A stretch of DNA of 64,000 nucleotides from an uncultured Planctomycetota bacterium (GCA_963752285.1 CAVVXN010000005.1:704001-768000); one strand, 5' to 3'; positions 9,158-37,273 are shown, counted from the first letter of the stretch. Notes: generated from the sequence alone by a model not told the origin. Program-made: numbers and translations.

Positions 9158-9237
9158 GGGTACCCTCCGGGCAGATCGACGGACCCGGCGTACCCCACCG
9201 CGCCGCGAGGGTCAATCGGTCGGTCCGGAGGACAGCC

Positions 9238-10362
9238 ATGGGCGCTCGCTCGGTCCTGGGTCTCGTCACCTTCCTCGCCCTCGCGTGCGGCGCCGTGCCC
9301 GCGCGGGGCGACGTGCCCGCCGAGCCCGCGCCCCGGGCGGCGCCGAAGGACACCCCCGCGGTCGTAGAGGAGGAGCCCGCGCTCGCCGAGGTCACGGGCG
9401 ATCGCGTGAATCTCCGGGTGGGCCCGCGCCTGGACAGCCACCCGGTCGCCGCGCTCGAGCGCGGCACGGTCGTCGAAATCGTCGAGGAGGTGCCCGGCTG
9501 GGTGGGGGTCCGGGTGCCGCAGGGATTCCCCGTGGCCGTGTCCATGGACTACGTCGTGCCCGAGGGCGCGAACGGTCTCCGGGTGATGGCGAGACGACTC
9601 AACCTGAGGGTCTCGCCGCCCGAGCGGGGCGCGCCGCCGCCCGGCATCTTCCGCGACCATCCCGCGCTGGGAGAGGTCCTGACGCTCATCGACGTCGCCG
9701 ACCCTCCGCCCCCGGAGGCGGACGAGGGGCCGGGGCCCCTTCCGGAGCCGCGCCCGTTCGGCGGGCGCTGGGCCTGGGTCGTGGCGCCGGAGGGCGTCCG
9801 CGCGTATCTGAGCGACGACCTCGTGCGCCGCCTCGAGAGGTCGCCCGACGCGCTCGCGCGCGTCGCGGCCGAACGCACCCGCCGCGGGGACGACGCGAAG
9901 CGCCTCGCCCAGGCGCGGGCGATGCTCGCCGCGAAGGACGCCGCGGCGCGGCTCATGGAGACCGTGGGCGAGATCCAGCAGGACCTCTACCACCTCCGTC
10001 AGGTGGGCGGGAACGACAAGGCGCCCATCGTCGATCTCGCGAACCGTCTCGACGCCGAGCTCCAGAAGGAGGGGGACGCGTCGAGCCCCGTCCTGCGCCT
10101 GGCCCTGGCGCTTCGCAGCGACCTCGAGCGCGAGATCGAGCTCCGCGTGGCACGGAACGACGCCGAGCTCGCGAAGGCGATGGGACGCGAGCCGAACGGC
10201 GTGCCCGCGCTCGAGAAGGTGATGGACCCCTTCGAGGCGGTCGGCCTCCTGCGCTACGAGCCGACGCCCGGGTGGAAGGAGGACGGCGTCTTCTTCCTCT
10301 GGTTGGAGGGGAAGCCGGCGTACGCCCTCCGGCTGACGGTGGGGGGGACCTGCCCCATCTGA
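9238..10362 (+). CDS. Exported SH3-domain protein; probably frameshifted at G7 (10341-10347), true end possibly 10550
   Basis: GGAGG RBS, signal peptide, bacterial SH3 motifs VTGDRVNLRVGP and ARRLNLRVSP, helical middle region. Confidence 0.75.
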   Translation: MGARSVLGLVTFLALACGAVPARGDVPAEPAPRAAPKDTPAVVEEEPALAEVTGDRVNLRVGPRLDSHPVAALERGTVVEIVEEVPGWVGVRVPQGFPVAVSMDYVVPEGANGLRVMARRLNLRVSPPERGAPPPGIFRDHPALGEVLTLIDVADPPPPEADEGPGPLPEPRPFGGRWAWVVAPEGVRAYLSDDLVRRLERSPDALARVAAERTRRGDDAKRLAQARAMLAAKDAAARLMETVGEIQQDLYHLRQVGGNDKAPIVDLANRLDAELQKEGDASSPVLRLALALRSDLEREIELRVARNDAELAKAMGREPNGVPALEKVMDPFEAVGLLRYEPTPGWKEDGVFFLWLEGKPAYALRLTVGGTCPI

Positions 10363-20521: not shown

Positions 20522-21709
20522 TCAGTAGACGCGCGTGAACGCGGCGCCCGGGTAGTACCAGGAGAGGATCTCGGACTCCGAGAACCCGCGACGCGCCATC
20601 TCCATCGCGCCCCACTGGCACATGCCGACGCCGTGTCCCCATCCGTGGCCCCGGACTTCCCACCCGTTGCCGACGCGGCGGATCGCCTCGATGTCGTGGG
20701 AGTCGAGCTTCAGCGCGGAGCGGAACTCGGTCCCCGGGAGCACGCGCGTCTTCCGCTGCGGACCGTACGTGACGGTCACCTCGGCGGCCCATCCGCCCGC
20801 GCCCTTCCGCGTCACCTCGATGCCGAGGACCGGGGGGACGATCGGTCGCTTCCGCGCCTCGAGGCCCTTCACGACGTCCCGGTCGGAGACGGTCTTGGTC
20901 CACGAGAAACGCGGGCTCGACTTGCAGAAATCGCAGCGCACGCCGCGCAGCGGCTCGGTGGCGCCTCCGGGGTCGAGGAGCGAGGTCTTCGCGTCGGTGG
21001 TGTGGCCGCCGCACGTGGACGAGTAGTACGCGGGGAAGGGCTGGCTCTGCCACGTCAGGATGACGCCGGCCGTGGCCTCCGCCGCGCGGAGCATGTCCGG
21101 GTACGAAGCGTCGTAGCGGGGTTGGCGGCCGCTGTAGACCTGGCTCGCCTGGTCGTCGTACACGTCGAACGCGCGGTCCTGTCGCGTCGGGTCGTGGATG
21201 CGGATCCACGCGTACGTGCGCGCGGCGACGGCTTGCGCGCGGTACGCGGCCGGCGGCGCGCCCGGCACCATCTCGTTCCCGATCACCCCCGCGACGTACG
21301 TCTCGAGGTCCACGACGTTCACGAAGCGGAGGCGTCCGTCCTGCAGGTGCGCGACGAGCTCGCCGGGATAGCGCGTGCCATCGAGGACGAAGTCGTCGCC
21401 GGACTGCACGTGGAGCACGGTAGCGCGCGTCTGTTCCCGTCCGACGACGATGCCCTCGCGCCCCGGCGTGAGGCGGACCTCGAGCGCCTCGTGTCCGCGC
21501 CGGACCCACGGACGGCCCGCGCCGGACACGACCTGCCAGGCGCGGTCGGGGAGGCGCACCGTCGCGCCGTCCGTGCCGCGGTCCACGAGGATGCGGATCG
21601 TGGGGGGGCGCGAGGCGGCGAGGACGGGCGTCTCGTAGGCGTCGCCGCAGCCCCCGACGGAGAGCACGACGACGGCCAGGGCGCCGAGGGGGAGCGCGGC
21701 GCCCCTCAA
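20522..21709 (-). CDS. SpoIID/LytB domain protein (probable lipoprotein)
   Basis: LETYVAGVIGNEM, AQAVAARTYA, YSSTCGGHT, GHGVGMCQWGA, ILSWYYPG. Confidence 0.92.
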   Translation of the reverse strand: MRGAALPLGALAVVVLSVGGCGDAYETPVLAASRPPTIRILVDRGTDGATVRLPDRAWQVVSGAGRPWVRRGHEALEVRLTPGREGIVVGREQTRATVLHVQSGDDFVLDGTRYPGELVAHLQDGRLRFVNVVDLETYVAGVIGNEMVPGAPPAAYRAQAVAARTYAWIRIHDPTRQDRAFDVYDDQASQVYSGRQPRYDASYPDMLRAAEATAGVILTWQSQPFPAYYSSTCGGHTTDAKTSLLDPGGATEPLRGVRCDFCKSSPRFSWTKTVSDRDVVKGLEARKRPIVPPVLGIEVTRKGAGGWAAEVTVTYGPQRKTRVLPGTEFRSALKLDSHDIEAIRRVGNGWEVRGHGWGHGVGMCQWGAMEMARRGFSESEILSWYYPGAAFTRVY

Positions 21710-22755
21710 AGCGGGAGCGCCCCCTCCCGGTCCACGCCGACCTCGGGCCCGAGAAGTGCGTGCCCCCGGGGCGTCAGCCGACGGCCCTGCGGGGTCTTCA
21801 CGAGCAGGCCCTCCCGAAGCAGGTGCGGCTCGTAGACGTCCTCGAGCGTGCGTTCCTCCTCGCCGACCGAGGCGGCGAGCGTCTTCAGTCCCATCGGGAT
21901 GCCGCCCGCGCGCCCGATGCTCGACAGGATCAGGCGGTCCACGCGGGTGAGGCCGTTCACGTCCACGCCCATCCGGCCCAGGCCCTCCTCGGCCAGGGCG
22001 AGCGTGACGCGGCCCTCGCCCTCGACCTCCGCCAGGTCACGCACCCGCCGCAGGAAGCGGTTCACGATGCGCGGCGTGCCGCGGGCGCGCGAGGCGAGGA
22101 GACGACCCGCGTCGGCATCGAGCCGAATGTCGAGAAGCCGCGCGGACCGCACGACGATCCGCGCGAGGTCGTCGTTCGCGTACGGCTCGAGTCGCTCGTG
22201 GATGCCGAACCGCGCGCGGAAGGGCGCTGAGAGGAGGCCCTCGCGCGTCGTCGCGCCGACGAGCGTGAAGCGGGGGAGGGGCACGGGGACGCTCTTCGCG
22301 GCGTTGCCCTGGCCGATGAGGATGTCGAGGACGAAGTCCTCCATCGCCCCGTACATGTATTCTTCGACGCCGCCCGGAAGTCGATGGATCTCGTCGATGA
22401 AGAGGACGTCGCCGCGCTCGAGGCGCGTCAGGAGGCCGGCGATGTCGGCCGCCCGCTGCAGCGCCGGCGCCGGGGCCTCGAAGAGGACCCCGCCGCTCTC
22501 GCTCGCGATCAGGTGGGCGAGGGTCGTCTTGCCGAGGCCCGGGAGCCCCGAGAGGAGGACGTGGTCCACGGGCTCCCGACGGCCCGTGGCGGCGCGGATC
22601 GCGAGCCTCAGGTTCGCGACGACGCCCGGTTGCCCGACGAACTCGTCGAGCGTCCGGGGACGAAGCGACCCCTCGAAGGCGCGGTCCTCCCCGAGCGCGT
22701 CGCCGTAGGCCGGCGGCGCGACCACCTCCCGCACCCGAGGACGCTCGCTGCCCAT
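21706..22755 (-). CDS. ruvB: Holliday junction branch migration helicase RuvB
   Basis: LRPRTLDEFVGQ, GLPGLGKTT, FIDEIHRL, GATTR, RGTPR, EDVYEP. Confidence 0.97.
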   Translation of the reverse strand: MGSERPRVREVVAPPAYGDALGEDRAFEGSLRPRTLDEFVGQPGVVANLRLAIRAATGRREPVDHVLLSGLPGLGKTTLAHLIASESGGVLFEAPAPALQRAADIAGLLTRLERGDVLFIDEIHRLPGGVEEYMYGAMEDFVLDILIGQGNAAKSVPVPLPRFTLVGATTREGLLSAPFRARFGIHERLEPYANDDLARIVVRSARLLDIRLDADAGRLLASRARGTPRIVNRFLRRVRDLAEVEGEGRVTLALAEEGLGRMGVDVNGLTRVDRLILSSIGRAGGIPMGLKTLAASVGEEERTLEDVYEPHLLREGLLVKTPQGRRLTPRGHALLGPEVGVDREGALPL

Positions 22756-22761
22756 GGGAGG

Positions 22762-22783
22762 AGGGTAGCCCGACCTCCCGACG
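22762..22783 (-). promoter_or_regulatory. Candidate PafBC/RecA-NDp-type promoter of ruvB (CGTCGG-N10-TACCCT)
   Basis: Minus strand reads CGTCGG gaggtcgggc TACCCT cctccc ATG. Confidence 0.6.
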
Positions 22784-22938
22784 GACGCAACGGGATGGGG
22801 GAGAACCGAGGTTCGTCCCCCAGGGGACGAGGTCCGTGGACCGCGCGACGCACGTCCGGACCCCGACGCCCCGCCGGGGTCCGGAATCGCCTCGGTGCGA
22901 TGCCCGCGCCCGGCCGGCCCCGCGTACCCTCCCGAGCG

Positions 22939-23697
22939 GTGACCGAGCGCGTCCTCCCCCCGCCCCGCCGCTTCGCGGACGAGCGCCGGCGGAAGGCCCC
23001 GACGCGGATCGCGCGGATGTTCGACGCGATCGCCCCGACGTACGACCTCCTGAACCACGTGCTCTCGGCCAACGTGGACGCGCGCTGGCGGCGCCGCGTG
23101 GTCGCCCTTCTCGAGCTCCGCGGGACGGAGCGCGCGCTCGACGTCTGTACCGGAACCGGGGACCTGGCGCTCGCGCTCCTCGAAGGCGGCGCGCGCGAGG
23201 TCGAAGGCTGCGATCTCGCCGAGGCGATGCTCGATCGGGCGGAGGAGAAGGCGAAGGGCCGCGTCCGCTTCCGCGTGGGCGACGCGGAGCGCCTTCCGTA
23301 CCCCGACGCCGCGTTCGACGTCGTCACGATCGGGTTCGGCGCGCGGAACCTCCAGCACCTGGACACGGGGCTTCGCGAGATGTGCCGGGTCCTCGCGCCG
23401 GGCGGACGGCTCGCGATCCTCGAGTTCTCGCGGCCGCCGAACCTGCTCGTGCGCTCCGTCTACGAGACCTACTCGACGATCGTGCTGCCGCTCGTCGGGA
23501 ACCTGGTGAGCGGCGGCTCCGACAACGCGTACACGTACCTGCCGCGCTCGGTCCAGGCGTTCCCGACGACGGGCGAGCTCGCGAACCGCCTCTGCGCCGC
23601 CGGCTTCGCCCAGGTGGGCGTGACGCTGCTGACGCTGGGCATCGCCGCGATCCACCTCGCGTCGAAGGCCGCCGGCTCCGACGCCGAGCGCGCCTGA
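22939..23697 (+). CDS. ubiE: Ubiquinone/menaquinone biosynthesis C-methyltransferase UbiE/MenG
   Basis: MFDAIAPTYDLLNHVLS, LDVCTGTGD, GDAERLPY, RVLAPGG, LEFS, AYTYLPRS. Confidence 0.93.
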   Translation: MTERVLPPPRRFADERRRKAPTRIARMFDAIAPTYDLLNHVLSANVDARWRRRVVALLELRGTERALDVCTGTGDLALALLEGGAREVEGCDLAEAMLDRAEEKAKGRVRFRVGDAERLPYPDAAFDVVTIGFGARNLQHLDTGLREMCRVLAPGGRLAILEFSRPPNLLVRSVYETYSTIVLPLVGNLVSGGSDNAYTYLPRSVQAFPTTGELANRLCAAGFAQVGVTLLTLGIAAIHLASKAAGSDAERA

Positions 23698-23701
23698 GGC
23701 G

Positions 23702-23908
23702 TCACGGCCGGACGAACGCCCGGCCGAGCCCGGCGACGAGCACGTGGTCCGCCCCGGGGATGGCGACGAGGGCGATCCCCAAGACGCGATCGCTCCGTCG
23801 CGCACGCAGGACCCCCAGGGCGCGAATGGGCCCCGACGAGGTCCAAGATGGCGCAGGTCGAGGACGGGGTCGGGCGAAACGCTCGACGACCGTGCCCGGG
23901 AACATCAT
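23702..23908 (-). CDS. Small hypothetical protein coupled to the GntR gene
   Basis: ATG overlaps the GntR stop; hydrophobic C-terminus; no recognisable motif. Confidence 0.35.
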   Translation of the reverse strand: MMFPGTVVERFARPRPRPAPSWTSSGPIRALGVLRARRSDRVLGIALVAIPGADHVLVAGLGRAFVRP

Positions 23909-24306
23909 CGCCGCTCCTCCGCGTGGGATCGGGCGTGCCAGACCGTCGCGAGGCGTCGCGCGGTCTCGGCCTCGTCGAGGCCCAGCGCGCGGGCCTGGCG
24001 CACGACCGCGCCGAGCCGCGCGTCGAGGTCGGCGGTGGCCTCCTCGTTCGGCGCCGCGCGCGTGGCCACGAAGGTGCCGCGGCCGCGCCGCGTGCGGATC
24101 CAGCCCTCGCGGTCGAGCACGTCGTACGCGCGCTTCACGGTGAGCGGCGCGACGTGGAGGTCGCGCGCCAGCTCGCGATGCGACGGGAGGCGATCGTCCG
24201 GTCCGAGGACCCCCGCGGCGAGCGCGCCCTTCACCTGCTCGACCAGCTGGCGGTAGATCGGGAGCGGGTCGCCGGGAGCGACCGAGAACAGAGTGCGAGC
24301 CGCCAT
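23905..24306 (-). CDS. GntR-family (YtrA-like) transcriptional regulator
   Basis: PIYRQLVEQV...LPSHRELARDL...TVKRAYDVL...RGRGTFV; short C-terminal domain. Confidence 0.92.
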   Translation of the reverse strand: MAARTLFSVAPGDPLPIYRQLVEQVKGALAAGVLGPDDRLPSHRELARDLHVAPLTVKRAYDVLDREGWIRTRRGRGTFVATRAAPNEEATADLDARLGAVVRQARALGLDEAETARRLATVWHARSHAEERR

Positions 24307-24309
24307 AGA

Positions 24310-24327
24310 GATATACATATATATATC
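24310..24327. promoter_or_regulatory. AT-rich palindrome, putative GntR autoregulatory operator
   Basis: GATATACATATATATATC is self-complementary at 16/18 positions and lies 3 nt upstream of the GntR ATG. Confidence 0.65.
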
Positions 24328-24446
24328 ACAGGAGTTGGCGGTGCGGGGGGGCGCGGTCTCCCGCCGACCGGGGCGCGCCGCCCCGGCCCGTGCGGGGTCG
24401 GCGCCGGCTGAAGGGCGGGACCCGGCGTGCCGACTCCTCAGCGCAG

Positions 24447-25184
24447 ATGGCACGTCGCAAGCGGCCGCCGCCGGTGGACTACCTCTCGCGCACCCGCGAG
24501 CTGCCCGTGAACGTGCTCTTCCTGATGCCCTGGCTCGTCGTCTACGAGCTCAGCCTGCTCGCCACGAACAGCCCCGTCGAGAACGCCGCCGGGGCGTGGT
24601 TCCGTACGCTCGCCGGGACGCTCGGGCGGGAGGGGCTCGCCGCGGTCGGGATCCTCGTCTCCGCGCTCCTGCTCGCGCTCGTGACGCTGCGCGCCCACCA
24701 GGCGCCGCGCGACCGGGGGGTGTACGGCGGGATGCTGCTCGAGGGACTCGCGTACGGCGGTTCGCTCGGTCTCGTCGCCGGCGTGCTCGCGGCGCACCTG
24801 CCCCTCGGCCGGATGGTGCCGCTCTCCGGGTTCTCGACCGCCGGCCTCGGTCCCACCGTCGAGAGGCTCGGCCTCGCCGCCGGCGCCGGGGTCTTCGAGG
24901 AGATCCTCTTCCGCGGCCTCGTGCTCGCGGGTTCGTTCGCGCTCCTCCGCCACGTCTTCGGCGCCGACCGTTGGACCGCGGGCCTCGTCGCGATCGTGGG
25001 GTCCGCCTGGCTCTTCTCGGCGTGGCACCACTGGGGGCCGGGCGCGGAGCCGTGGTCCGAGCCCGTCTTCCGGTTCCGCTTCGCCGCCGGCGCGGTGCTC
25101 GGCACGATCTTCCTGACGCGCGGCCTGGGGATCGCCGCGTTCGCGCATGGGTTCTACGACGCGATCGTCATGCTGTCCCGGTAG
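24447..25184 (+). CDS. CPBP/Abi (CAAX-type) intramembrane glutamic endopeptidase
   Basis: AGVFEEILFRG, FSAWHH, AHGFYD motifs; multiple TM helices. Confidence 0.88.
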   Translation: MARRKRPPPVDYLSRTRELPVNVLFLMPWLVVYELSLLATNSPVENAAGAWFRTLAGTLGREGLAAVGILVSALLLALVTLRAHQAPRDRGVYGGMLLEGLAYGGSLGLVAGVLAAHLPLGRMVPLSGFSTAGLGPTVERLGLAAGAGVFEEILFRGLVLAGSFALLRHVFGADRWTAGLVAIVGSAWLFSAWHHWGPGAEPWSEPVFRFRFAAGAVLGTIFLTRGLGIAAFAHGFYDAIVMLSR

Positions 25185-25508
25185 CGGAGCCGAAGAGGGG
25201 CCCGGGGTCGAGCTCGAACCCGCCGAGCGCCGTCGAGCGAAGGGACGAGTCGTTTCTCGCGCGTGCGACGGATCCCCGACGGCGGACCTCGATCGTGCGC
25301 GCCTCCGGGTCCAGGAGCCAGACCTCGGCCCCGCCGGCCTCGAGGTGGTGTCGCGTCTCGACGTGGCGGTCGCGCGCGGCCGTCGGGGGGGAGAGAACCT
25401 CGACGACGAGGAGGGGGATGCCGACCTCCGGGGCGTCGAGGGGGAGCGGACGCGCGAGGACGACGATGTCGGACTGGAGGACGTTGAGCTCGTCGAGAGC
25501 CACGTCGT
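25168..25508 (-). pseudogene. Uma2/DUF820 endonuclease, C-terminal remnant
   Basis: DVALDELNVLQSDIVV...PLLVVEVLSP...RDRHV...EAGGAEVWLLDPEARTIEV...GFELD; N-terminus missing. Confidence 0.7.
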
Positions 25509-26103
25509 GGGCCGCGGCATCGCCCTCCCGCTCGCGTCCTCGGACGACGTCCCACCGGGCCAGCGGGTGGAGGTGCTCGGGTACCCGGCCGTCGGGTTCG
25601 ACGACGCGACGATGCGTCCGGAGGCGGCGTACCGCGTGCGCGCAAAGGACCGGCAGGTCGCGGGCCAGAGGCCGATGCGCGGCGACGGGGCCGCGATCGA
25701 GATGACCGCCGACATCCACCACGGCGACAGCGGCGGTCCGGTCCTCCACGACCCGCGGTACGTGATCGGCCTGAACGTCGCGGGCCCGGAGGGCGCGGCG
25801 AGCGCCGCCCTGGCGGTCCCCCTGCGCCTCGCCCGCGCCCGGCTCGAGCAGCTGGGCGTTCGTCCGGACCCGGGTCCGCGCACGGAGCCGTGGATCGAGG
25901 CCCTCGCCGACTACCACGCGGGGCGGTACGCCGAGGCGGAGCGTCGCGTCGATGGGATCGGCCAGATCCAGGTCGGTGCGCGCGGGACCGACGGCAGGGC
26001 GCCGATCGTCGGCTCCGTCGCGTGGGCGTTCGCGAGCCACGTGAGCCCGTACGTGCGCGACCTCTCGGGTCTGGTCTACGCGAGTACGCACCCGCAGCGC
26101 TGA
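25509..26103 (+). pseudogene. Trypsin-like serine protease, C-terminal remnant
   Basis: LPLASSDDV...VLGYP...IHHGDSGGPVL; the N-terminal half with catalytic His/Asp and a start are missing. Confidence 0.7.
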
Positions 26104-26119
26104 ACGCCTCGGCGGGACC

Positions 26120-26998
26120 TCAGCGGAGGAGCACCGCCGCGATGCCGGCGCCGCTCAGCACGACGGACACCACCCCGTTCAGCGTGAAGAAGGCCGTGTT
26201 GACGCGCGTGAGGTCGTCGGGACGCACGAGCGCGTGTTCGACCGCGAGCAGGAGCGCCACGACCGCGACCGCCGCGCCGTAGACCCAGCCGAGACCGGCG
26301 AGGAACGCGAGGCCCACGAACGCCGCGAGACAGACGGCGTGCAGCGCCGCGGCGACGCGGAGCGCGGCATGGGTCCCGAGGCGCGCCGGGAGCGAGCGGA
26401 GCCCGAGGCGGCGGTCCACGACCTCGTCCTGCGCGGCGTAGATCACGTCGAAGCCCGCCACCCACGCGAGCACGCCGAGAGAGAGGACCAGCGGGACGGC
26501 GAGGTCCCGGTCGAGGCGGCCGGTCGCGGCGATCCACGCGCCGAGCGGGGAGAGGCCGAGCGCGAGGCCCACGCCCAGGTGCGCGAGGGACGTGAAGCGT
26601 TTGAGGAACGAATAGCCGAAGAGCACGAGCAGGACGAGCGGGGAGAGCGCGAGGGGCAGGGGGCCGAGCGCGAAGGCCGCGAGGAGGAAGACCGCGGTCG
26701 AGGCGACCGTGAAGACCCATGCGAAGCGGACCGAGATCGAGCCGACCACGAGGTGGCGGCGCGCGGTGCGCGGGTTCTCGGCGTCGAACCTTCGATCGGC
26801 GATGCGGTTCACCGTCATCGCCGCGCTGCGTGCCGCGACCATCGCGACCACGACCCATGCGAGCACGCGCGGCGCGGGCCAGCCGCCCGAGGCGAGGAAG
26901 AGCGCGAAGAGCGCGAACGGCAGCGCGAAGACGCTGTGGTGGAACCGGATCATCTGCAGCGTGCGGCGGAGCGAGGAGGCGATGCCGGAGGTGCTCAC
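26120..26998 (-). CDS. ubiA: UbiA-family prenyltransferase (MqnP-like)
   Basis: HSVFALPFA, ARSAAMTVNRIADRRFDAENPRT, YSFLKRF, GFDVIYAAQD, AFFTLNG. Confidence 0.9.
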   Translation of the reverse strand: MSTSGIASSLRRTLQMIRFHHSVFALPFALFALFLASGGWPAPRVLAWVVVAMVAARSAAMTVNRIADRRFDAENPRTARRHLVVGSISVRFAWVFTVASTAVFLLAAFALGPLPLALSPLVLLVLFGYSFLKRFTSLAHLGVGLALGLSPLGAWIAATGRLDRDLAVPLVLSLGVLAWVAGFDVIYAAQDEVVDRRLGLRSLPARLGTHAALRVAAALHAVCLAAFVGLAFLAGLGWVYGAAVAVVALLLAVEHALVRPDDLTRVNTAFFTLNGVVSVVLSGAGIAAVLLR

Positions 26999-27609
26999 GG
27001 AGCGCTCTCCGCGCCGGCCTCGGGCGTTCCCCAGCGGCGGATCAGGTCGGCGTCTACGCCGATCCGGTCGAGGACCTTCTGCACGACGAAGTCCACGAGG
27101 TCGTCGATCGTCTTCGGGCGGTGGTACCAGGCGGGCGCCGCGGGGAGGATCGTGGCGCCCGCGCGCGAGAGGCGGAGCATCGCTTCGAGGACGATGGGGG
27201 AGAGCGGGGTCTCCCGGGGCACGAGCACGAGGGGCCGGGCCTCCTTCAGGGCGACCTCGCACATCCGCTCGAGGAGGTTCGTGGACGCGCCGGAGGCGAC
27301 CCGGCCGAGGAGTCCCGTGCTCGCCGGGCAGACGACGTACGCGTCCACGCGAAACGAGCCCGAGGCGACGTCGGCGGCGACGTCGTCCGGACGGCGGTAT
27401 GCGAGGGACGAGGCGACGTCCGCGCCGAAGAACGCGGAGAGGTCGGGTGCGAAGGGGTCGCAGGCGATCCCCAGCTCGGCCGGCGCGAGCTTCGCGAGGG
27501 TCGGGCTCATCGTGACGAGCGTCTCGCAACCGGCCTCGACGAGGCGCCGGACGAGGCGCTGCCCGTAGACGGTGCCGGAGGCGCCGGAGATGCCGACGGC
27601 GACGCGCAA
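26995..27609 (-). CDS. ubiX: Flavin prenyltransferase UbiX
   Basis: GISGASG, ASGSF, LKEARPLVLVPRETP, PAWYHRP. Confidence 0.93.
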   Translation of the reverse strand: MRVAVGISGASGTVYGQRLVRRLVEAGCETLVTMSPTLAKLAPAELGIACDPFAPDLSAFFGADVASSLAYRRPDDVAADVASGSFRVDAYVVCPASTGLLGRVASGASTNLLERMCEVALKEARPLVLVPRETPLSPIVLEAMLRLSRAGATILPAAPAWYHRPKTIDDLVDFVVQKVLDRIGVDADLIRRWGTPEAGAESAP

Positions 27610-27716
27610 GGGGAACCCCTGGAAAGGAGGGGCAGGATACGGGACCGCTCGGGATCCTCCCCCCGCCCGCGGGACCCGCGGTGGCGCGGTCCCTCGGGCC
27701 CGTAGACTCGCGCGCC

Positions 27717-29492
27717 ATGGCCGACGCCGCGCCCCTGGACCTGCCGGACTTCCTCGACCGGCTCCGGAGGCGGGGCCTCCTCGCCGAGATCGACGCCGAG
27801 GTCGATCCCCGGCTCGAGGCCCCCGAGGTCCACCGGCGCGTGATCCGGGAGGGGGGACCCGCCCTCCTCTTCCGGCGGCCGAAGGGCGGGGCGTTCCCGC
27901 TCGTGATGAACCTCTTCGGCACCGAGGAGCGCGTGCACCTCGCCTTCGGCGACCGGCCGAAACGCTTCGTCGAGCGCGCGGTCGAGGCGCTCCACGTCCT
28001 CGAGCAGCCGTCCCTCGGCTCGCTCTGGCGGCTCCGGGGCCTCGCGCGCGACGCGCTGCGCATGGGGACGCGCGGCCGCCGCCGCGGTCCGGTGTCGGAG
28101 GTCGAGGAGGCGCCCGACCTGGCGAAGATCCCGGCCACGACGTCGTGGGCGACCGACGGCGGACCGTTCCTCACGCTGCCGCTCGTCGCGACGCGGCACC
28201 CCGAGACGGGGCGTCCGAACCTCGGCGTGTACCGCATGCAGGTGTTCGACGCCGAGACCACGGGCATGCACTTCCAGATCCACAAGGGCGGAGGTTTCCA
28301 CCTCCATGAGGCCGAGCGACGCGGCGAGGACCTCCCCGCCACCGTCTTCCTCGGCGGGCCGCCCGCGCTGATCCTCGCGGCCATCGCGCCGCTGCCGGAG
28401 GACGTGCCCGAGATCCTCCTCGCGAGCGTGCTCCTCGGCGCGCGCGTACCCGTCGTCGGACGTCGGACCTCGCACCCGCTCGTCGCGACGGCCGAGATCG
28501 CGCTCGTCGGTCGGGTCCTCGCGAGGGAGCGCAGGCCCGAGGGCCCGTTCGGCGACCACTACGGCTACAACAGCCTCCGCCACGACTACCCGGTGTTCCG
28601 CGTGGACCGCGTGTTCCGCCGGCGCCGTCCCGTCGTCCCGGCGACGGTCGTCGGACCGCCCCGCCAGGAGGACTTCTTCCTCGGCGACTACGTGCAGGAC
28701 CTCCTCTCACCGCTCTTCCCCCTCGCGATGCCGAGCGTGCGGGGCCTCTGGTCGTACGGCGACACCGGGTTCCACAGCCTCGCGGCCGCGCGGGTGGCCG
28801 ACCGCTACCCGCGCGAGGCGCTCGTCTCGGGCCTCCGGATCCTCGGCGAAGGGCAGCTCAGCCTCACGAAGTGCCTGTTCCTCACGGACCAGGCGGTGGA
28901 CCTCCACGACTTTCGCGCGGTGCTCCGATCGTGGCTCGAACGCGCGGACTTCGCGACGGACGTGGTCGTGCTCGGCGAGACCGCGATGGACACGCTCGAC
29001 TACACGGGACCGCGCGTGAACCGCGGGAGCAAGGCGCTGTTCCTCGGGCTGGGCGCGCCGCGGCGGCGGCTCCCCACGGAGGTGCCGTCCGAGCTCCCGG
29101 CCGGCGTGAGGGGCGCACGCGCGTTCACGCCGGGCTGCCTCGTGCTCGGCGGTCGTCCGTACGCCGAAGCCGAGGGCCAGGCCGAGAGCGTGGCGCGACA
29201 CCCCGCGTTCGCCGACTGGCCGCTCCTCGTCCTCGTGGACGACGTCGCCGCGGCGACGGCCTCGACGCCCGCGTTCCTCTGGACCGTGTTCACCCGCTTC
29301 GAGCCCGCGGGCGACCTCGCGGCGCGCGCCCGCCACCTCGACCGGTTCCACGTGGCGCTCGAGCCGCCCCTCGTCTTCGACGCGCGGATGCGGCCTTCGT
29401 ACCCGGACGTGCTCGAGGTCGATCCCGAGACGAGCGCGCTCGTGGACCGCCGCTTCGACGAGTACGGGATCGGTCGGCGGGGGGGACGCTGA
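27717..29492 (+). CDS. ubiD: UbiD-family decarboxylase (MqnL-like)
   Basis: GGPALLF, NLFGT, NLGVYRMQ, EGPFGDHYGY, PPRQED, DTLDYTG. Confidence 0.92.
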   Translation: MADAAPLDLPDFLDRLRRRGLLAEIDAEVDPRLEAPEVHRRVIREGGPALLFRRPKGGAFPLVMNLFGTEERVHLAFGDRPKRFVERAVEALHVLEQPSLGSLWRLRGLARDALRMGTRGRRRGPVSEVEEAPDLAKIPATTSWATDGGPFLTLPLVATRHPETGRPNLGVYRMQVFDAETTGMHFQIHKGGGFHLHEAERRGEDLPATVFLGGPPALILAAIAPLPEDVPEILLASVLLGARVPVVGRRTSHPLVATAEIALVGRVLARERRPEGPFGDHYGYNSLRHDYPVFRVDRVFRRRRPVVPATVVGPPRQEDFFLGDYVQDLLSPLFPLAMPSVRGLWSYGDTGFHSLAAARVADRYPREALVSGLRILGEGQLSLTKCLFLTDQAVDLHDFRAVLRSWLERADFATDVVVLGETAMDTLDYTGPRVNRGSKALFLGLGAPRRRLPTEVPSELPAGVRGARAFTPGCLVLGGRPYAEAEGQAESVARHPAFADWPLLVLVDDVAAATASTPAFLWTVFTRFEPAGDLAARARHLDRFHVALEPPLVFDARMRPSYPDVLEVDPETSALVDRRFDEYGIGRRGGR

Positions 29493-29524
29493 CGTTGGCG
29501 CGGACACCGGCCCGGGACCGCGCC

Positions 29525-30652
29525 GTGCCCGCACCCGAGCTGGAGGCCCGGCTCGAGGGCGGGGTCCCGCCGGTCGTGGTCCTCGCGGGCGCCGAGCGGT
29601 GGTTCCGCGAGCAGGGCCTCCGGTCGATCGTAGGGCGCGTGCTGCCCGAGGGCGACCCCGGCGGGGCGTTCGTGCGCGTGGACGCGCGCCTGACCCCGGA
29701 CCAGGTGGCGGGCGCCGTCGACGAGTTGCGCACGGGGTCGCTCTTCGGCGACGGCAAGGTGGTCCTCGTCGAGAACCCGGAGTGCGCCGAGCTCGGGGGA
29801 GGCACGAGCAAGGAGAGCCCGATCGCGCGCCTCGCGGCGGCCGCGCTCGCGCCGCCGCCGCCCGCTGGCGTGCTCGTGCTCTCGACGTCGAAGGGAGTGA
29901 AGGGCCGGGACGCCGTCCCGACCGCGACCGTCTCGGACGCGGGGGCGCTCGTCGTGGACTGCCGCACGCTCTACGACGCGCCGGGTCCGTGGCAGCGCGG
30001 CGCGGCGCCCCACGACCACGAGCTCGCGCGGTTTCTCTCCGGCCGGATGTCCCGCGTGCACGGGAAGCGGCTTCCCCTCCCGGAGGCGCACGCGCTGACC
30101 CGGCTCGTCGGGAGCGACCTCGGCGAGCTCGACGGCGCGCTCAACGCGCTCGCCCTCTACCTCGGCCCGCGCGCGGCCGTCGCGCTCGACGACGTGGCCG
30201 CGGCCGTGGGGGCGACGCGCACCGATCCCGCGTGGCACCTGGTGGACGCCGTCTTCGAGGGGGACGTCCGGCGCGCCCTCGACCTCCTCCTTCACGCGCG
30301 GACGCACGGGCTCGCCGACGCGCGCGGCGGTTCGATCCGCGGCGACGACGCGCTCCTCGGATACCTCGGCGCCTCGCTCCACGGTCGCTTCCGCCGCACG
30401 CTGGCCGCGGCGGAGGGGCTGGCCCGGGGCGACCCCGCGGACCAGGTCGCACGACGGCTCGGCGTGCCGGGATTCCGGCAGCAGGCGGAGCTCCAGCGCT
30501 GCCACGTCGATCCCGCGCGCCTCCTCGCCGCGCATGAGGCCTTCCTGGAGGCCGAGGCGGGCACGAAGAGCGGGCGGGTGCCGGCCAATGTCGCGCTCGA
30601 CCGCCTCGTCGTGTCGCTGGTCACCGAGCTGCCCGTCGGGGGCCGCGCGTAG
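29525..30652 (+). CDS. holA: DNA polymerase III delta subunit (alternative TTG start 29495)
   Basis: VVLAGAERWFRE, ELRTGSLFGDGKVVLVE, VGSDLGEL, WHLVDAV, terminal LDRLV. Confidence 0.75.
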   Translation: MPAPELEARLEGGVPPVVVLAGAERWFREQGLRSIVGRVLPEGDPGGAFVRVDARLTPDQVAGAVDELRTGSLFGDGKVVLVENPECAELGGGTSKESPIARLAAAALAPPPPAGVLVLSTSKGVKGRDAVPTATVSDAGALVVDCRTLYDAPGPWQRGAAPHDHELARFLSGRMSRVHGKRLPLPEAHALTRLVGSDLGELDGALNALALYLGPRAAVALDDVAAAVGATRTDPAWHLVDAVFEGDVRRALDLLLHARTHGLADARGGSIRGDDALLGYLGASLHGRFRRTLAAAEGLARGDPADQVARRLGVPGFRQQAELQRCHVDPARLLAAHEAFLEAEAGTKSGRVPANVALDRLVVSLVTELPVGGRA

Positions 30653-30655
30653 GCT
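30634..30655 (+). promoter_or_regulatory. Candidate PafBC/RecA-NDp-type promoter of mutL (CGTCGG-N10-TAGGCT)
   Basis: CGTCGG 30634-30639, TAGGCT 30650-30655, ATG 30663; same hexamer and spacing as at ruvB; TAG is also the holA stop. Confidence 0.55.
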
Positions 30656-30662
30656 GGCCCCC

Positions 30663-32453
<1,791 letters not shown>

Positions 32454-32465
32454 CGGGGTCGGCGA

Positions 32466-33374
32466 TCAGTTGGGGGCGGCGAACCGGCTCGCGTCCACCC
32501 CGATGTTGATCTTGATGTCCTGCACGGTGGCCGAGAGGAAGGGCGTCGGCGACGGACGGCCGTCCGGGCCGGTCAGCAGCGCGTAGCCGTAGATCGTGCG
32601 CGGGTAGCGGAACTCGCGGTTCTGCTGCGATCGCGCGTCGTCCCAGTCCTTGAGGATGTAGTCCTCGGTCGGGTCGCCCTTCGTGCGGTCGCCCTCGACG
32701 CGGACGATGCCCGGCCAGGTCGCGACGTCCTCGCCCGTCTTCGGGTCCGTCTCGTACGCGATCCAGAACGTGATGTTGCTCCGACCCGCCACCTTCCGCA
32801 CGACCTTGAGCCAGTTGCCGGCGTACACCGTGTTCGGCGTGCCCGTCGTCTTCTTCTCGAACACGAACGTGGTGCCGGGGCCCTTCAACGTCTGGGGGGC
32901 GAGGAACGTGGCGATGTCGCCCAGGCGGTCGCGGTCGTCCTGGAGCTGCGTGATGGAGCGGCGACCCTCCGCCGAGAGCACGAGGTTCTGCACCCGGCCG
33001 TCCGGCAGCCGGATCCACGCCGTCGTCCCGTTCAGGATCTTCGTCGTGGTCGCGTTGTTCGTGGTGAGCTCCATCCGGTAGTTGCCGGGCTCCTGGAGCC
33101 AGAGACGCATCTCGCCGGTCGCCTGGTTCGCGTCGAGCTTCAGCCACGCGTCGAGCTTCGTGTAGAAGTCTCGGATGGAGGGGATGCCCTGCTGGCCGCG
33201 GGCGACGTACCGGACCATCTGGTCGAAGTACCGGGTTCCGAGGACGACCGACTGGTCGGCGGGCTGAGGAGCGGCCGGCGGGGCCACGACGGGGCCGCCT
33301 TCCGCACGGGCGGGGGCCCGGCCCGTCAGGAGGAGGGCGAGGCCGAACAGCGGGACGATCAGGCGCGTACGCAT
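32466..33374 (-). CDS. Hypothetical exported protein, possibly LolA-like beta-rich fold
   Basis: Signal peptide; LWLQEPGNYRMEL...ILNGTTAWI pattern; TATGAT upstream. Confidence 0.65.
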   Translation of the reverse strand: MRTRLIVPLFGLALLLTGRAPARAEGGPVVAPPAAPQPADQSVVLGTRYFDQMVRYVARGQQGIPSIRDFYTKLDAWLKLDANQATGEMRLWLQEPGNYRMELTTNNATTTKILNGTTAWIRLPDGRVQNLVLSAEGRRSITQLQDDRDRLGDIATFLAPQTLKGPGTTFVFEKKTTGTPNTVYAGNWLKVVRKVAGRSNITFWIAYETDPKTGEDVATWPGIVRVEGDRTKGDPTEDYILKDWDDARSQQNREFRYPRTIYGYALLTGPDGRPSPTPFLSATVQDIKINIGVDASRFAAPN

Positions 33375-33555
33375 CTTCCGTGTGCTCCCTGGGCCGCGCG
33401 GGCCCGAACCGCCGATCATAGGGGCGGAGCCGCGGGGCGGGGTCCAGGAGGGCCCCCGGGTGGGGGCCTCCGGGTTGGACGGGCCGGGCGCGGGGTGGGA
33501 TGCTCCCCGCCCGACCGAGGGGGGACCCTGCCCGGTCGGGGGAGGCGAGCGCCCC

Positions 33556-34860
33556 GTGCACCCGGTCGATCGGCCCCTCACCCGCGGCCTCGCGCCCGGC
33601 GTGACGCTCCACGTGCTGCCGACGCGGCGGTTCACGACCGCGTGGTGCCGGGTGGCGCTGCCCCGACGCCCGGGCCGGGACGTCAGCGGGACCTCGCTCC
33701 TCGCGAGTGTGCTCGAGGCGGCGACGGAACGCCACCCGACCCGCGAGGCGCTCGCGTGGGCGCTCGCCGACCTCGGCGGGGCGACGCTCGGCGTCTCCGT
33801 CGGCCGGCTCGGGGACGCCCACGTCCTCTCCGCCTCGCTCGAGTGGCCCCTCGCGGGCCTCGGCCGGAGGGAGGACCTCCTCGGGAAGGGCCTCCGACTC
33901 CTCGGCGACGTCCTCGCCCGCCCGAAGCGGGAGCGGCCCGGCCGGGACGACCTCGACGAAGGGATCGTCTCGACCGAGCGCCAGAACCTCGCGCAGAGCC
34001 TCGCCGCGGTCCGCGACGACAAGGCGCGCTACGCGCTCCGGCGACTCCTGGAGACCGCCTGCGAGGGCGAGCCGTACGCGACCGACGCGCTCGGGCGGAC
34101 CGAGGACCTCCCGGGGATCGACCCGCGGGGACTCTCGCGCCTGCACGCGAGGCTACTCGCGAGGAGCCCGGTCGTCGTGTTCCTCGCGGGCGACGTCGAT
34201 CCGGCCGCCGCCGTGCGTTCCGTGCGGCGTCACCTCCTCTGGCCCCGCCGCGCGGCGGGCGTGCGCCGCTTCCCACGCGCCGCCGCCGTACGCCGCGCCC
34301 GCGCGGTCCCGCGCCGCGTGGTCGAGCGCGACACCGTCCAGCAGACGCGCCTCGCGCTCGCCTGGCGGGCGCCGGTCGGTCCGCGCTCGCCGCTGCTCCC
34401 CGCGGCGGTCGTGCTGGCCGGCGTGCTCGGCGGCGGGTCGTTCTCGCGTCTCTTCAAGGTCGTGCGCGAGACGGACGGCCTGTGCTACGACGCGTCGGCG
34501 GCCTGGCACGCGGCGAAGGGGCTCCTCACGGTCGAAGCGGGCGTGGACGAGGCGGAGAGGGCCCGCGCGGTCCGGCGGGTGCGGTCCCTCGTCGCCGAGG
34601 TCGCCGCGGGACGGCTCGACGCGCGGTCCCTCCACGGGTTCGCGGAGGCGGTGCGGAGCCGGTTCGAGGCGCTCGGAGACGACCGGGCCTCGATCGCCGC
34701 CTGGTCGCTCGACGCGCTCCTGCTGGGGATCGATCCGGACCCGGAGGCCTATCGCCGGCGTCTCGCCGCCGTGGACGCTCGTGCGGTCCGGGCCGTGGGC
34801 CGGCGCCTCGGCGCCGAGGCGAGCTACGCGCTCGCGCCCCGGCCGGGGAGGCGGCCGTGA
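33556..34860 (+). CDS. M16-family peptidase, non-catalytic subunit (YmfF-like)
   Basis: GGAGG RBS; no HxxEH motif; LGGGSFSRLFKVVRETDGLCY. Confidence 0.82.
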   Translation: MHPVDRPLTRGLAPGVTLHVLPTRRFTTAWCRVALPRRPGRDVSGTSLLASVLEAATERHPTREALAWALADLGGATLGVSVGRLGDAHVLSASLEWPLAGLGRREDLLGKGLRLLGDVLARPKRERPGRDDLDEGIVSTERQNLAQSLAAVRDDKARYALRRLLETACEGEPYATDALGRTEDLPGIDPRGLSRLHARLLARSPVVVFLAGDVDPAAAVRSVRRHLLWPRRAAGVRRFPRAAAVRRARAVPRRVVERDTVQQTRLALAWRAPVGPRSPLLPAAVVLAGVLGGGSFSRLFKVVRETDGLCYDASAAWHAAKGLLTVEAGVDEAERARAVRRVRSLVAEVAAGRLDARSLHGFAEAVRSRFEALGDDRASIAAWSLDALLLGIDPDPEAYRRRLAAVDARAVRAVGRRLGAEASYALAPRPGRRP

Positions 34861-36176
34861 GCCGCCCCCTCGCCGAGCGCCCGGTGGTCGAGGTCGCGCC
34901 GGTCACGGGACACGAGGTGGTCCGGGCGCGGACGCGCTCCGGGGCGGAGGTCGTCGTCGTCGTCATGCCCGGCTTCTCCTCCGCCTTCGCGGTGCTCGCG
35001 ACGCGGTTCGGATCGATCGACGACCGGCTGCCCGACGGGCGGAGGCTGCCGGCCGGCACCGCGCACTTCCTCGAGCACGTGATGTTCCAGAAGGAGACGG
35101 GCGACCTCTTCGACGTGTTCGAGGCGCGCGGCGCGGCGTCGAACGCCTACACGACGTTCCACCACACGGCCTACCTCTTCGCGTGTACGCACGACCTCGA
35201 CGAGAACCTCGCGACCCTCCTCGAGTCGGTGGCGCGGCTCGAGGTCGATGCGCCGCGGATCGAACGCGAGCGCGCGATCATCGGACAGGAGATCGCGCTC
35301 TACGCGGACGACGCCGCGTGGCGCGCGGCGTTCGGCCTCTACCGGGCGCTCTACCGGGCCCACCCCGTGCGGGACGACATCGTCGGGGACCGCGCGTCGG
35401 TCGCGCGGATCCGAAGGCCCCTCCTCCAAGCCGCACACGCGGCGTACTACGCGCCCGGGAACCTGGTGCTCGCCGTCGCGGGCGACGTGGACCCGGGCCG
35501 CGTGATCGTGGCGGCCGAGAGACGCCTCGGCCCGGCCCGCGGGCGCGCGCGGCGCGCGCCCCGGCGCGCGGCCGAGCCGGCCGCGGTCGCCCGCGCCGAG
35601 GTCCGCGCCCGGCTTCCCGTGGGGCGTACGCACGTCGTCCTGGGACTCAAGGACCGGCCGCGTGCGAACGGCCCGGCCCGGATCCGCCGGCATGTGGAGA
35701 CCGCGCTCGTCCTCGACCTGCTCTTCGGCGACGGTGGGCGGGTCGAGGCTCCGCTCTACCGCGAGGGCGTGGTGGACGACAGCCTCTCCGCGATCTACGA
35801 GGACGAGATCGACTTCGCGCACGTGGTCGTGAGCGCGGAGGTGGACGACGAAGCGCGTTACCGGGCCCGGCTCCTCCGTGCGCTCGACGAGGCGGGCGCC
35901 CGGCCGTTCGGGCGGGACGAGCTCGACCGGGTCCGCCGCCGCGCCCGCGGGCGGTTCCTGCGGACCTTCAACGCGCCCGAGAGCGCCGCCTACTGGGCAC
36001 TCGGCCACGCGCTCGACCGGGCGCCCCTCGGCGCACGCGTCGGCGCGCTCGACCGCGCCGCTCCCGCGGCGCTCGACCGTCGGCTCGCGACCCTGCTCCG
36101 GCTGCCGCGGGCGTGGTCGATCGTGACCCCCCCCGTTGAGGCGACCGGTCGCCGACGTAGAATCCCGGTCCGATGA
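34857..36176 (+). CDS. M16-family zinc peptidase (YmfH-like)
   Basis: TRFGSID, GTAHFLEHVMF, SNAYTTF, ERAIIGQEI, YYAPGN; GTGA overlap. Confidence 0.88.
   Translation: MSRPLAERPVVEVAPVTGHEVVRARTRSGAEVVVVVMPGFSSAFAVLATRFGSIDDRLPDGRRLPAGTAHFLEHVMFQKETGDLFDVFEARGAASNAYTTFHHTAYLFACTHDLDENLATLLESVARLEVDAPRIERERAIIGQEIALYADDAAWRAAFGLYRALYRAHPVRDDIVGDRASVARIRRPLLQAAHAAYYAPGNLVLAVAGDVDPGRVIVAAERRLGPARGRARRAPRRAAEPAAVARAEVRARLPVGRTHVVLGLKDRPRANGPARIRRHVETALVLDLLFGDGGRVEAPLYREGVVDDSLSAIYEDEIDFAHVVVSAEVDDEARYRARLLRALDEAGARPFGRDELDRVRRRARGRFLRTFNAPESAAYWALGHALDRAPLGARVGALDRAAPAALDRRLATLLRLPRAWSIVTPPVEATGRRRRIPVR
36136..36163 (+). promoter_or_regulatory. sigma70-type promoter of the WYL gene (TTGAGG-N16-TAGAAT)
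   Basis: TTGAGG 36136-36141, TAGAAT 36158-36163, ATG 9 nt downstream. Confidence 0.5.
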
Positions 36177-37273
36177 CCACCATCGCGCGCGATCGCATCC
36201 GTCGCTGCCTCGCCATGATCCCGTTGATCCGTGCGCGGCCCGGGATCCGCATCCCCGACCTGGCGTCGATCTTCGGGGTCCGCGAGGAGGAGGTCTGGGA
36301 GGACATCACGGAGGTCCTGACGCTCTGCGGCGTTCCCCCGTACCTCCCGCACAACTACCTGGTCTTCTCCATCCACGGCGATCGGGTGCGCATCCACTTC
36401 GCGGAGCACCTCTCCCGACCGGTGCACCTCACCCTGCAGGAGGCGCTGGCGATCGACCTGGCCCTGCGCAGCGTCTCGGGCGGACGTCCGCCGGCGTTCG
36501 GCGACGCCGCGCCGCGCCTGCGGGCGAAGCTGGCCCAGCTCCTGGGCGGGCGGGAGCGGGCCGCGCTCGAGCGGTTCGACCGGTCGCTCGCGGGCGCGCC
36601 GCCCTCCGACCTGGTCACGGACACGATCGGGGTGCTGAAGGAGGCGATGGCCCGGAACGTCTCGGTGGAGATCGAGTACTACACGGCCTCCCGGGACCGG
36701 GAGTCCACCCGGACGATCGACCCGTACGGCCTCGTGGACCACCGAGGGAACTGGTACGTCGTGGCCCGGGACCACCTGCGCGCGCGGGAGCTGCCCTTCC
36801 GCGTGGATCGGATCCGCGCGGCACGGATCCTGCCCGGCGCGGGGTACGAGGTCCCCGACACCTTCACCACGGAGGACTTCCGCCGGGACGAGATGTGGCG
36901 GGAGGGGCCCGAGGACATCGTGGTCAAGGTGCGGTTCGCCGCGCCCGTGGCCGCCCGGGTGCGGGAGGAGGCGGCACGCCGCGACGTGAAGGACGGCCCC
37001 GAGGGGAGCGTGATCCGGTCGTTCCGGATCCAGCGCGGACGGCCGCGCTGGCTCTTCACCCACGTGGCGCGCTACGGGCCCGCGGCGGAGGTCCTGGAGC
37101 CGCCCGAGGTCCGGCGGGGCATGGCGACCTTCCTGGACGCGGTGCGTCGGTCGTCCGGCGAGGCGCGCGAGGAGGCGGGATCCGTGGAGCCGCGGATCCG
37201 CCCGACGGCGACCGCGGCGGCGCGGAGCCGACCGAGCCGACCGAGAACCCGCCGGAAGCCGCGCTCCTCCTGA
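36173..37273 (+). CDS. HTH-WYL-WCX transcriptional regulator, PafC-like
   Basis: N-terminus RIRRCLAMIPLI...DLASIFGV...LCGVPPY...LSRPVHLTLQEA resembles PafC; WYL domain YYTASRD...RTIDPY...WYV...FRVDRI; C-terminal YGPAAEVLEP. Confidence 0.85.
   Translation: MTTIARDRIRRCLAMIPLIRARPGIRIPDLASIFGVREEEVWEDITEVLTLCGVPPYLPHNYLVFSIHGDRVRIHFAEHLSRPVHLTLQEALAIDLALRSVSGGRPPAFGDAAPRLRAKLAQLLGGRERAALERFDRSLAGAPPSDLVTDTIGVLKEAMARNVSVEIEYYTASRDRESTRTIDPYGLVDHRGNWYVVARDHLRARELPFRVDRIRAARILPGAGYEVPDTFTTEDFRRDEMWREGPEDIVVKVRFAAPVAARVREEAARRDVKDGPEGSVIRSFRIQRGRPRWLFTHVARYGPAAEVLEPPEVRRGMATFLDAVRRSSGEAREEAGSVEPRIRPTATAAARSRPSRPRTRRKPRSS

Follow-up and report, generated by a model that had tools for sequence, protein, structure and literature searches.

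The 64,000-nucleotide (nt) stretch of DNA analyzed here, from an uncultured Planctomycetota bacterium (CAVVXN010000005.1:704001-768000; hereafter the window, with positions counted from its first letter), encodes ruvB and mutL, the only two repair genes among the ~44 genes called, together with a WYL-domain regulator that resembles PafC, one half of the transcription factor PafBC. Genes were called by G+C content at third codon positions (GC3) and then searched against Pfam and NCBIfam, with 45 open reading frames (ORFs) scanned. Both repair genes are preceded by the same candidate promoter element, in which the hexamer CGTCGG stands 10 nt upstream of a -10-like TAnnnT. The original prediction, made from the sequence alone, had placed this element before ruvB and mutL, and both copies are exact. 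It had also held that there are only two sites, a count that is overturned by a third exact match before a gene for an SH3-domain lipoprotein. The 7-mer CCGTCGG is common to all three sites, each of which is promoter-positioned. The sites and the genes directly concerned are the following:

22762-22784, minus strand: ruvB site, CCGTCGG-N10-TACCCT, a candidate -26 element and -10, from the sequence
30633-30655, plus strand: mutL site, CCGTCGG-N10-TAGGCT, a candidate -26 element and -10 inside the 3' end of holA, from the sequence
9144-9166, plus strand: third site, CCGTCGG-N10-TACCCT, from a pattern search (CGTCGG match at 9145-9166)
21706-22755, minus strand: ruvB (349 amino acids, aa); Pfam RuvB_N, AAA_lid_4 and RuvB_C; NCBIfam NF000868 at 398 bits against a cut-off of 282
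~29525-30652, plus strand: holA, DNA polymerase III delta (375 aa by the database copy P0126); TIGR01128 at 112.7 bits against a cut-off of 80
30663-32453, plus strand: mutL (596 aa); Pfam, and TIGR00585 at 518 bits against a cut-off of 180
36173-37273, plus strand: PafC-like WYL regulator (366 aa); Pfam HTH_PafC, WYL and WCX, and a conserved basic C-terminal tail
8057-9157, minus strand: class I/II aminotransferase gene, overlapping the third site with its first codons (M-T-A-D-G); Pfam/NCBIfam
9238-10362, plus strand: SH3-domain lipoprotein gene; signal peptide, LALACG and SH3_3 domain

At the ruvB site, read on the minus strand, CGTCGG (22783-22778) is followed by 10 nt, TACCCT (22767-22762), 6 nt, and the start codon (22755). 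Because the ATG comes 6 nt after TACCCT, the ruvB mRNA would be leaderless. At the mutL site, on the plus strand, CGTCGG (30634-30639) is followed by 10 nt, TAGGCT (30650-30655), 7 nt, and the ATG (30663). Here, the hexamer sits in the final codons of holA, with its GTC encoding a Val at position -5, and the TAG of TAGGCT doubles as the holA stop codon, just as had been predicted. The third site lies 72 nt 5' of the lipoprotein ATG (9238), between the divergent aminotransferase (minus) and lipoprotein (plus) genes, where the element covers aminotransferase codons 3-5 and its GTC pairs with GAC, the codon of Asp4, on the opposite strand. This third element is also one half of an inverted repeat, CGACGG-agcg-CCGTCG (9135-9150), a partner that the ruvB and mutL sites do not have.

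The PafBC consensus is given in PMC8635444 as tGTCgg(N10)tA(N3)T, with lower case denoting 50% conservation or less, and the mycobacterial promoter form on which the original prediction relied is the published one. Since only GTC, A, and T are strongly conserved in that consensus, CGTCGG-N10-TAnnnT fits it fully. This form of promoter, which has no -35 element, occurs at the three exact sites, and a scan with an Escherichia coli-type sigma-70 consensus found no -35/-10 pair at any of them. There is one weak -35-like hexamer at ruvB:

22785-22790, minus strand: TTGCGT, 17 nt 5' of TACCCT, agreeing with TTGACA at 3/6 positions

An extracytoplasmic function (ECF)-type reading (GGAAC-N16/17-CGTC) was also considered and rejected, as by eye no GAAC lies at the proper distance at any of the sites.

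TANNNT is scarce in the window, with 53 copies in 128 kb (both strands). Eight of them nevertheless lie 6-9 nt 5' of a start codon, in front of lipA (TAnnnT at 5091), ruvB (22767), ubiE (22925), ubiD (27703), mutL (30650), the WYL gene (36158), the gene for an HlyD-type adaptor (47402), and ORF 50934 (50922). Given the rarity of the hexamer, leaderless mRNAs therefore seem to be widely used, and the TAnnnT hexamers of ruvB and mutL fit this leaderless pattern as credible -10 elements. The commonest -10 form is TACCCT, found at six promoter-positioned sites, and CCGTCGG accompanies 3 of the 21 promoter-positioned TANNNT sites. Nine further -10-like elements had been predicted to stand without the hexamer. 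We located eight, none of which carries it; the ninth, assigned to a GNAT-nitrilase gene, could not be found, there being no TANNNT upstream of that ORF as called here.

Across both strands of the window, CGTCGG-N10-TANNNT is found three times against 0.31 expected, and 0/100 shuffles reached a count of at least three. For the extended CCGTCGG-N10-TANNNT the expectation falls to 0.03 (three found), with the 7-mer having been chosen after the data were seen. When CGTCGG was sought at 60 other spacings 5' of the 53 TANNNT sites, six copies appeared in all, or ~0.1 per spacing. The excess counts only because both the motif and the spacing were fixed in advance by the published PafBC consensus.

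The PafC-like gene foreseen at 36173-37273 is likewise confirmed. Its product matches the Pfam families HTH_PafC (69 bits; cut-off 32), WYL (74 bits), and WCX (50 bits), all above their cut-offs, and among solved structures it comes closest to Arthrobacter PafBC in its PafC half (6sj9, 2.6e-29), followed by mycobacterial PafC (7p5x, 1e-22). The match to PafB (6e-10) begins only at residue 73 and does not include the helix-turn-helix (HTH). An AlphaFold model of moderate quality (pLDDT 70, pTM 0.38), which served for fold ranking only, places a chain of the PafBC-RNA polymerase complex first, then 6sj9, and then DriD. A homodimer prediction for the protein scored 0.01 against a mark of 0.42 and decides neither way. 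The regulator shares 57-79% identity with more than 110 database clusters, many of them labelled "proteasome accessory factor C" by JGI, and its HTH hardly varies among the 25 homologues aligned. Relatives that are 75-79% identical occur on contigs of up to 1.1 Mb, and one that is 62% identical on a 3.1-Mb contig. The same domain architecture is common in clusters from Gemmatimonadota, Actinomycetota, and Myxococcota. Beyond these domains, a basic C-terminal tail, TAAA..RP...RTRRKP (37180-37270), is present in the closer planctomycete homologues and absent from distant ones (36-44% identical; P0113, P0116, and P0118-P0120); this conserved tail might contact DNA. Homologues of HolA and of the PafC-like protein are found on contigs of equal size in seven cases (13,332; 16,799; 24,213; 35,956; 46,892; 681,347; and 1,092,971 bp), and on that ground the neighborhood from holA to the WYL gene seems to be conserved in relatives.

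Relatives were compared through HolA and the aminotransferase, the two proteins with terminal codons that overlap an element. The HolA set comprised 67 homologues including the window copy, of which P0192 was dropped for its non-homologous end, leaving 66 with tails of 1-21 aa past the last conserved RLV motif. Val lies exactly five residues from the C-terminus in 42/66 of these, a figure that divides into 37/47 for tails of at least 11 aa and 5/19 for shorter ones. In four of the five short-tailed cases, the Val directly follows RLV and so may belong to the folded domain. Of the 47 long tails, 29 have Pro and 7 have Gly at position -4, and the last three positions vary. The window HolA has this Val encoded by the GTC of the mutL element, with 12 nt separating that GTC from the TAG that serves as both stop and -10. 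A promoter embedded in a gene end would be expected to leave such a mark, namely a residue anchored to the stop codon and not to the folded domain.

The aminotransferase presents a corresponding picture at its N-terminus. Asp is found at residue 4 in five of the nine closest representatives, or in six if P0195 starts at its second Met (P0196, which is N-terminally truncated, was left out), and the linker after the Asp4 region varies in length. As background, Val and Asp make up 9.4% and 6.4% of residues in the window genes, with GTC accounting for 50% of Val codons and GAC for 94% of Asp codons. Judged from these alignments, conservation of the overlapping codons speaks for a GTC under constraint at two of the three sites, and the signal appears to carry weight in that the conserved residue of both unrelated proteins falls on the GTC codon.

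Taken together, we regard a PafBC-type promoter class as a plausible and partly supported reading, to which we assign a probability of about 40%; the tie to this particular regulator is inferred. CCGTCGG-N10-TAnnnT would mark a small class of hybrid promoters, in which a GTC element near -26 accompanies a normal -10 and a usable -35 is lacking, and which would drive ruvB and mutL as leaderless mRNAs and the SH3-domain lipoprotein gene as a leadered one. By analogy with PafBC, the element would be a binding site at which a WYL-domain factor most likely slots in between the DNA and the housekeeping sigma factor, at region 4 of the latter, a mode of activation known as sigma adaptation. The activating WYL complex would contain the PafC-like protein of 36173-37273, its trigger would presumably be single-stranded DNA arising from DNA damage, and the subunit or surface that reads GTC would be encoded outside the window.

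The likeness to the PafBC regulon, with its RecA-NDp promoters and sigma adaptation, extends from the promoter (a GTC hexamer, 10 nt, TAnnnT, and no usable -35) to the encoding of a PafC-type protein nearby and to repair genes as the putative targets. The promoter in front of the regulator gene here is strong and looks constitutive, which fits because PafBC levels are reported in PMC6789036 to stay unchanged on damage. There are, however, clear differences. In the PafBC system, pafB and pafC are either neighbors or fused into one gene and are linked to the pafA operon, whereas here a single PafC-like gene stands with no PafB beside it, and the Pup, proteasome, and PafA families match 0/45 ORFs. 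The conserved basic C-terminal tail also sets the regulator apart from PafBC. In addition, the host is a planctomycete, and the candidate targets include mutL, which mycobacteria are not known to have.

According to PMC8635444, GTC is read by the HTH of PafB through R46 and R50, and the acidic HTH of PafC touches only sigma region 4. Since it is PafB that reads GTC and no second WYL gene is present here, the window would hold the adaptor half of such a system and not its DNA reader. PafBC is reported in PMC11804915 to be the only heterodimeric WYL factor. A search of the ESM Atlas for a planctomycete PafB-like cluster lacking PF19187 returned only generic WYL clusters, mostly from Bacillota, and was uninformative.

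Several observations weigh against a PafBC-type class, and many of them would be expected if the three sites were a coincidence of G+C-rich codon usage and chance. In that case, the genes would have ordinary housekeeping promoters, and mutL might simply share a transcript with holA; the conserved Val and Asp at the termini would be explained at the protein level, and the PafC-like protein would regulate other things. There are just three sites, all within 64 kb, and two of the three hexamers lie within coding DNA. CGTCGG itself is common (231 copies on both strands), and the core GTC-N12-TANNNT is unenriched, with three found against 4.19 expected. In an open-ended control that allowed any k-mer at any of 41 spacings from 53 random positions, some 6-mer reached three copies in 202/300 trials and some 7-mer in 47/300. 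Conservation of the Val and Asp could act at the protein level, and the relatives compared share ancestry. The conserved Val is moreover mostly followed by Pro (CCN) and not by Gly (GGN), so that the mutL site in relatives reads mostly GTN-CCN, unlike the PafBC element, and GTCGG itself is unconserved there.

Direct comparison of promoter regions in relatives is similarly unfavorable. Only one of 80 loci, from a planctomycete metagenome-assembled genome (MAG) designated L001, has ruvB (RuvB 55% identical) near mutL, at a distance of ~8.5 kb; its ruvB is preceded by TATCCT, 8 nt, and the ATG, with no GTC at -26, and its mutL has an overlapping TGATG junction and no motif. The motif stands before mutL in 0/13 planctomycete loci, all from distant genomes, and the sole match among them with a 9-nt spacer (L013) is not near mutL. 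Searching the 80 loci by tblastn with the WYL, RuvB, HolA, SH3, YfmH, and UbiD proteins gave no WYL match in the stretches covered. Conservation of the motif in relatives, one of the checks named with the original prediction, is suggested by the GTC-overlapping codons at two of three sites, and the motif is absent in L001 and at the 13 mutL loci.

On the side of the protein, a Pfam scan of the window found no PafB-like or second WYL gene, leaving the PafB partner that had been sought unaccounted for within these 64 kb, and a search for longer proteins returned one fused form at 32% identity and none that is close. Helix 3 of the HTH is acidic (VREEEVWEDITEV), as in PafC, which disfavors DNA binding, and by our reading of the alignment the residue that corresponds to the sigma-contacting Asp62 of PafC is Val. 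Finally, ruvB has both the weak -35-like TTGCGT and a palindrome resembling a LexA box. The broader claim of a WYL-activated repair regulon that includes mutL is partly supported: the motif, the PafC-like protein, and the GTC codons speak for it, and the lack of a PafB, the acidic HTH, and the motif-less L001 against it.

Coincidence has nevertheless to account for the pre-specified motif reaching three copies in none of the 100 shuffles, for two of the three sites preceding the only two repair genes, and for conserved terminal residues of two unrelated proteins falling exactly on the GTC codon while being anchored to the end of the gene. With these set against the absence of a PafB from the window, the frequency of k-mer triples at random positions, and the other points above, we find coincidence somewhat unlikely.

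Alternatively, the element could be real and be read by a factor, whether activator or repressor, that is unrelated to the PafC-like protein. The WYL gene would then be a mere neighbor that may regulate itself through a palindrome in its own promoter region, where the following features are found:

36136-36163, plus strand: promoter-like TTGAGG-N16-TAGAAT, 9 nt 5' of the WYL gene ATG, from the sequence
36140-36153: perfect 14-bp palindrome, GGCGACCGGTCGCC, overlapping the last two bases of TTGAGG and running into the spacer
33382-36176, plus strand: two M16 peptidase genes (YfmF/YfmH-like); Pfam/NCBIfam

The palindrome GGCGACCGGTCGCC has no second exact copy in the window and is a possible autoregulatory operator of the WYL gene. 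As an operator shared with the three sites it was rejected, given that none of them has a relative of it and that its near-matches in the window number 36 against 52 expected. The YfmH-like peptidase gene ends in a TGA that shares bases with the ATG of the WYL gene (ATGA, 36173-36176), and the promoter-like signal of the WYL gene lies inside that peptidase gene. The regulator gene is bordered by the M16 peptidase genes and, at its other end, by a WD40/BNR repeat gene. A separate reader would accord with a PafC-type HTH that is not expected to read DNA, with a palindrome that is unique in the window and absent from the three sites, and with a WYL gene that overlaps the peptidase stop 5.5 kb from mutL. 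It is less easily reconciled with the promoter form: no other known class has GTC at -26 at a fixed 12-nt spacing to the -10, and the PafBC consensus matches exactly. The clade with the Val signal is also one in which the PafC-like gene is strongly conserved. On balance, a factor of another kind seems unlikely.

A third possibility, compatible with the other readings, is classical LexA (SOS) control of ruvB through GAAC-N4-GTTC, a palindrome of the type that serves as a LexA box in Gram-positive bacteria:

22803-22814: GAACCGAGGTTC, LexA-box-like palindrome 5' of the ruvB promoter

The ruvAB genes belong to the SOS response in E. coli. This is the sole exact GAAC-N4-GTTC in the 64 kb, located ~13 nt 5' of the ruvB -35-like hexamer, and an overlap of SOS and PafBC control in mycobacteria is described in the review PMC7617703. 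With one match found against 0.72 expected, 24 one-mismatch copies against 20, no lexA gene in the window, and a box type that may not be that of Planctomycetota, only the position is suggestive, and we deem LexA control of ruvB improbable.

If the promoters are of PafBC type, they would not be the first damage regulon outside Actinobacteria to be activated by a WYL protein. DriD of Caulobacter is a homodimeric WYL activator of an SOS-independent damage regulon, the half-site of which contains GTC followed by G (ATACGAC-N7-GTCGTAT; PMC13004042). Its operator keeps a constant spacing to the -10 and overlaps the -35 position of promoters that lack a -35 element. Like the regulator described here, for which it forms the second-best group of fold matches, DriD is an activator with WYL and WCX domains. 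Its site is palindromic, however, and is bound as a pseudo-palindrome with both HTHs, whereas the ruvB and mutL sites contain no inverted repeat and the third site alone has a 6-bp partner. The HTH here is also of PafC type with an acidic helix 3, unlike that of DriD. The defense-island regulators BrxR and CapW share the HTH-WYL-WCX fold and give weaker matches (4e-9 and below). They differ from the present protein in their setting, since no defense system adjoins it: PADLOC returned only generic WYL models for the regulator and no defense system among its neighbors. Identities of 57-79% over more than 110 clusters are also unlike those of mobile defense regulators.

Sigma adaptation by PafBC is so far described only in Actinobacteria, and our literature search found no paper containing both PafC and Planctomycet*. 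Six papers that mention the WYL domain together with Planctomycetes deal, by their titles, with other matters. It is possible, if doubtful, that a clade of Planctomycetota runs a PafBC-type sigma-adaptation damage regulon of its own, with leaderless -26/-10 promoters, mutL included, and a lone conserved PafC-like protein, the DNA being read by an unlinked partner or by a new surface such as the basic tail. Were this so, sigma adaptation by WYL factors would predate the actinobacterial PafB/PafC pair and have a wider distribution than it. Finding PafBC promoter grammar in a phylum of Gram-negative type, alongside just one PafC-like protein, would pose the question of how GTC is read without PafB and, secondly, whether damage-inducible mismatch repair is part of such responses. 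It would further provide Planctomycetota, the transcription signals of which are poorly known, with a class of promoters that can be tested and with a candidate damage response independent of SOS.

The host had been described as a TolC-bearing and probably planctomycete genome, and the window does encode a TolC-type protein, among genes that are planctomycete in look. Its G+C content is 73.6%. Homologues of the WYL and HolA proteins carry the name Planctomycetota wherever they are named, and the best relatives of MutL among the matches listed in a scan of a genome collection come from Planctomycetota/Phycisphaerae MAGs, at just 34-48% identity. The SH3_3 protein downstream of the third site found no relative among solved structures; by reading, LALACG in its signal peptide is lipobox-like, and a GGAGG lies 6 nt 5' of its ATG. 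Between mutL and the peptidase genes, a gap of 0.9 kb contains an ORF of ~139 codons (32662-33081, plus strand; GC3 0.99) without a family match. Around ruvB, neither ruvA nor ruvC adjoins the gene, and its stop codon overlaps the start of a SpoIID-domain gene (20522-21709, minus strand).

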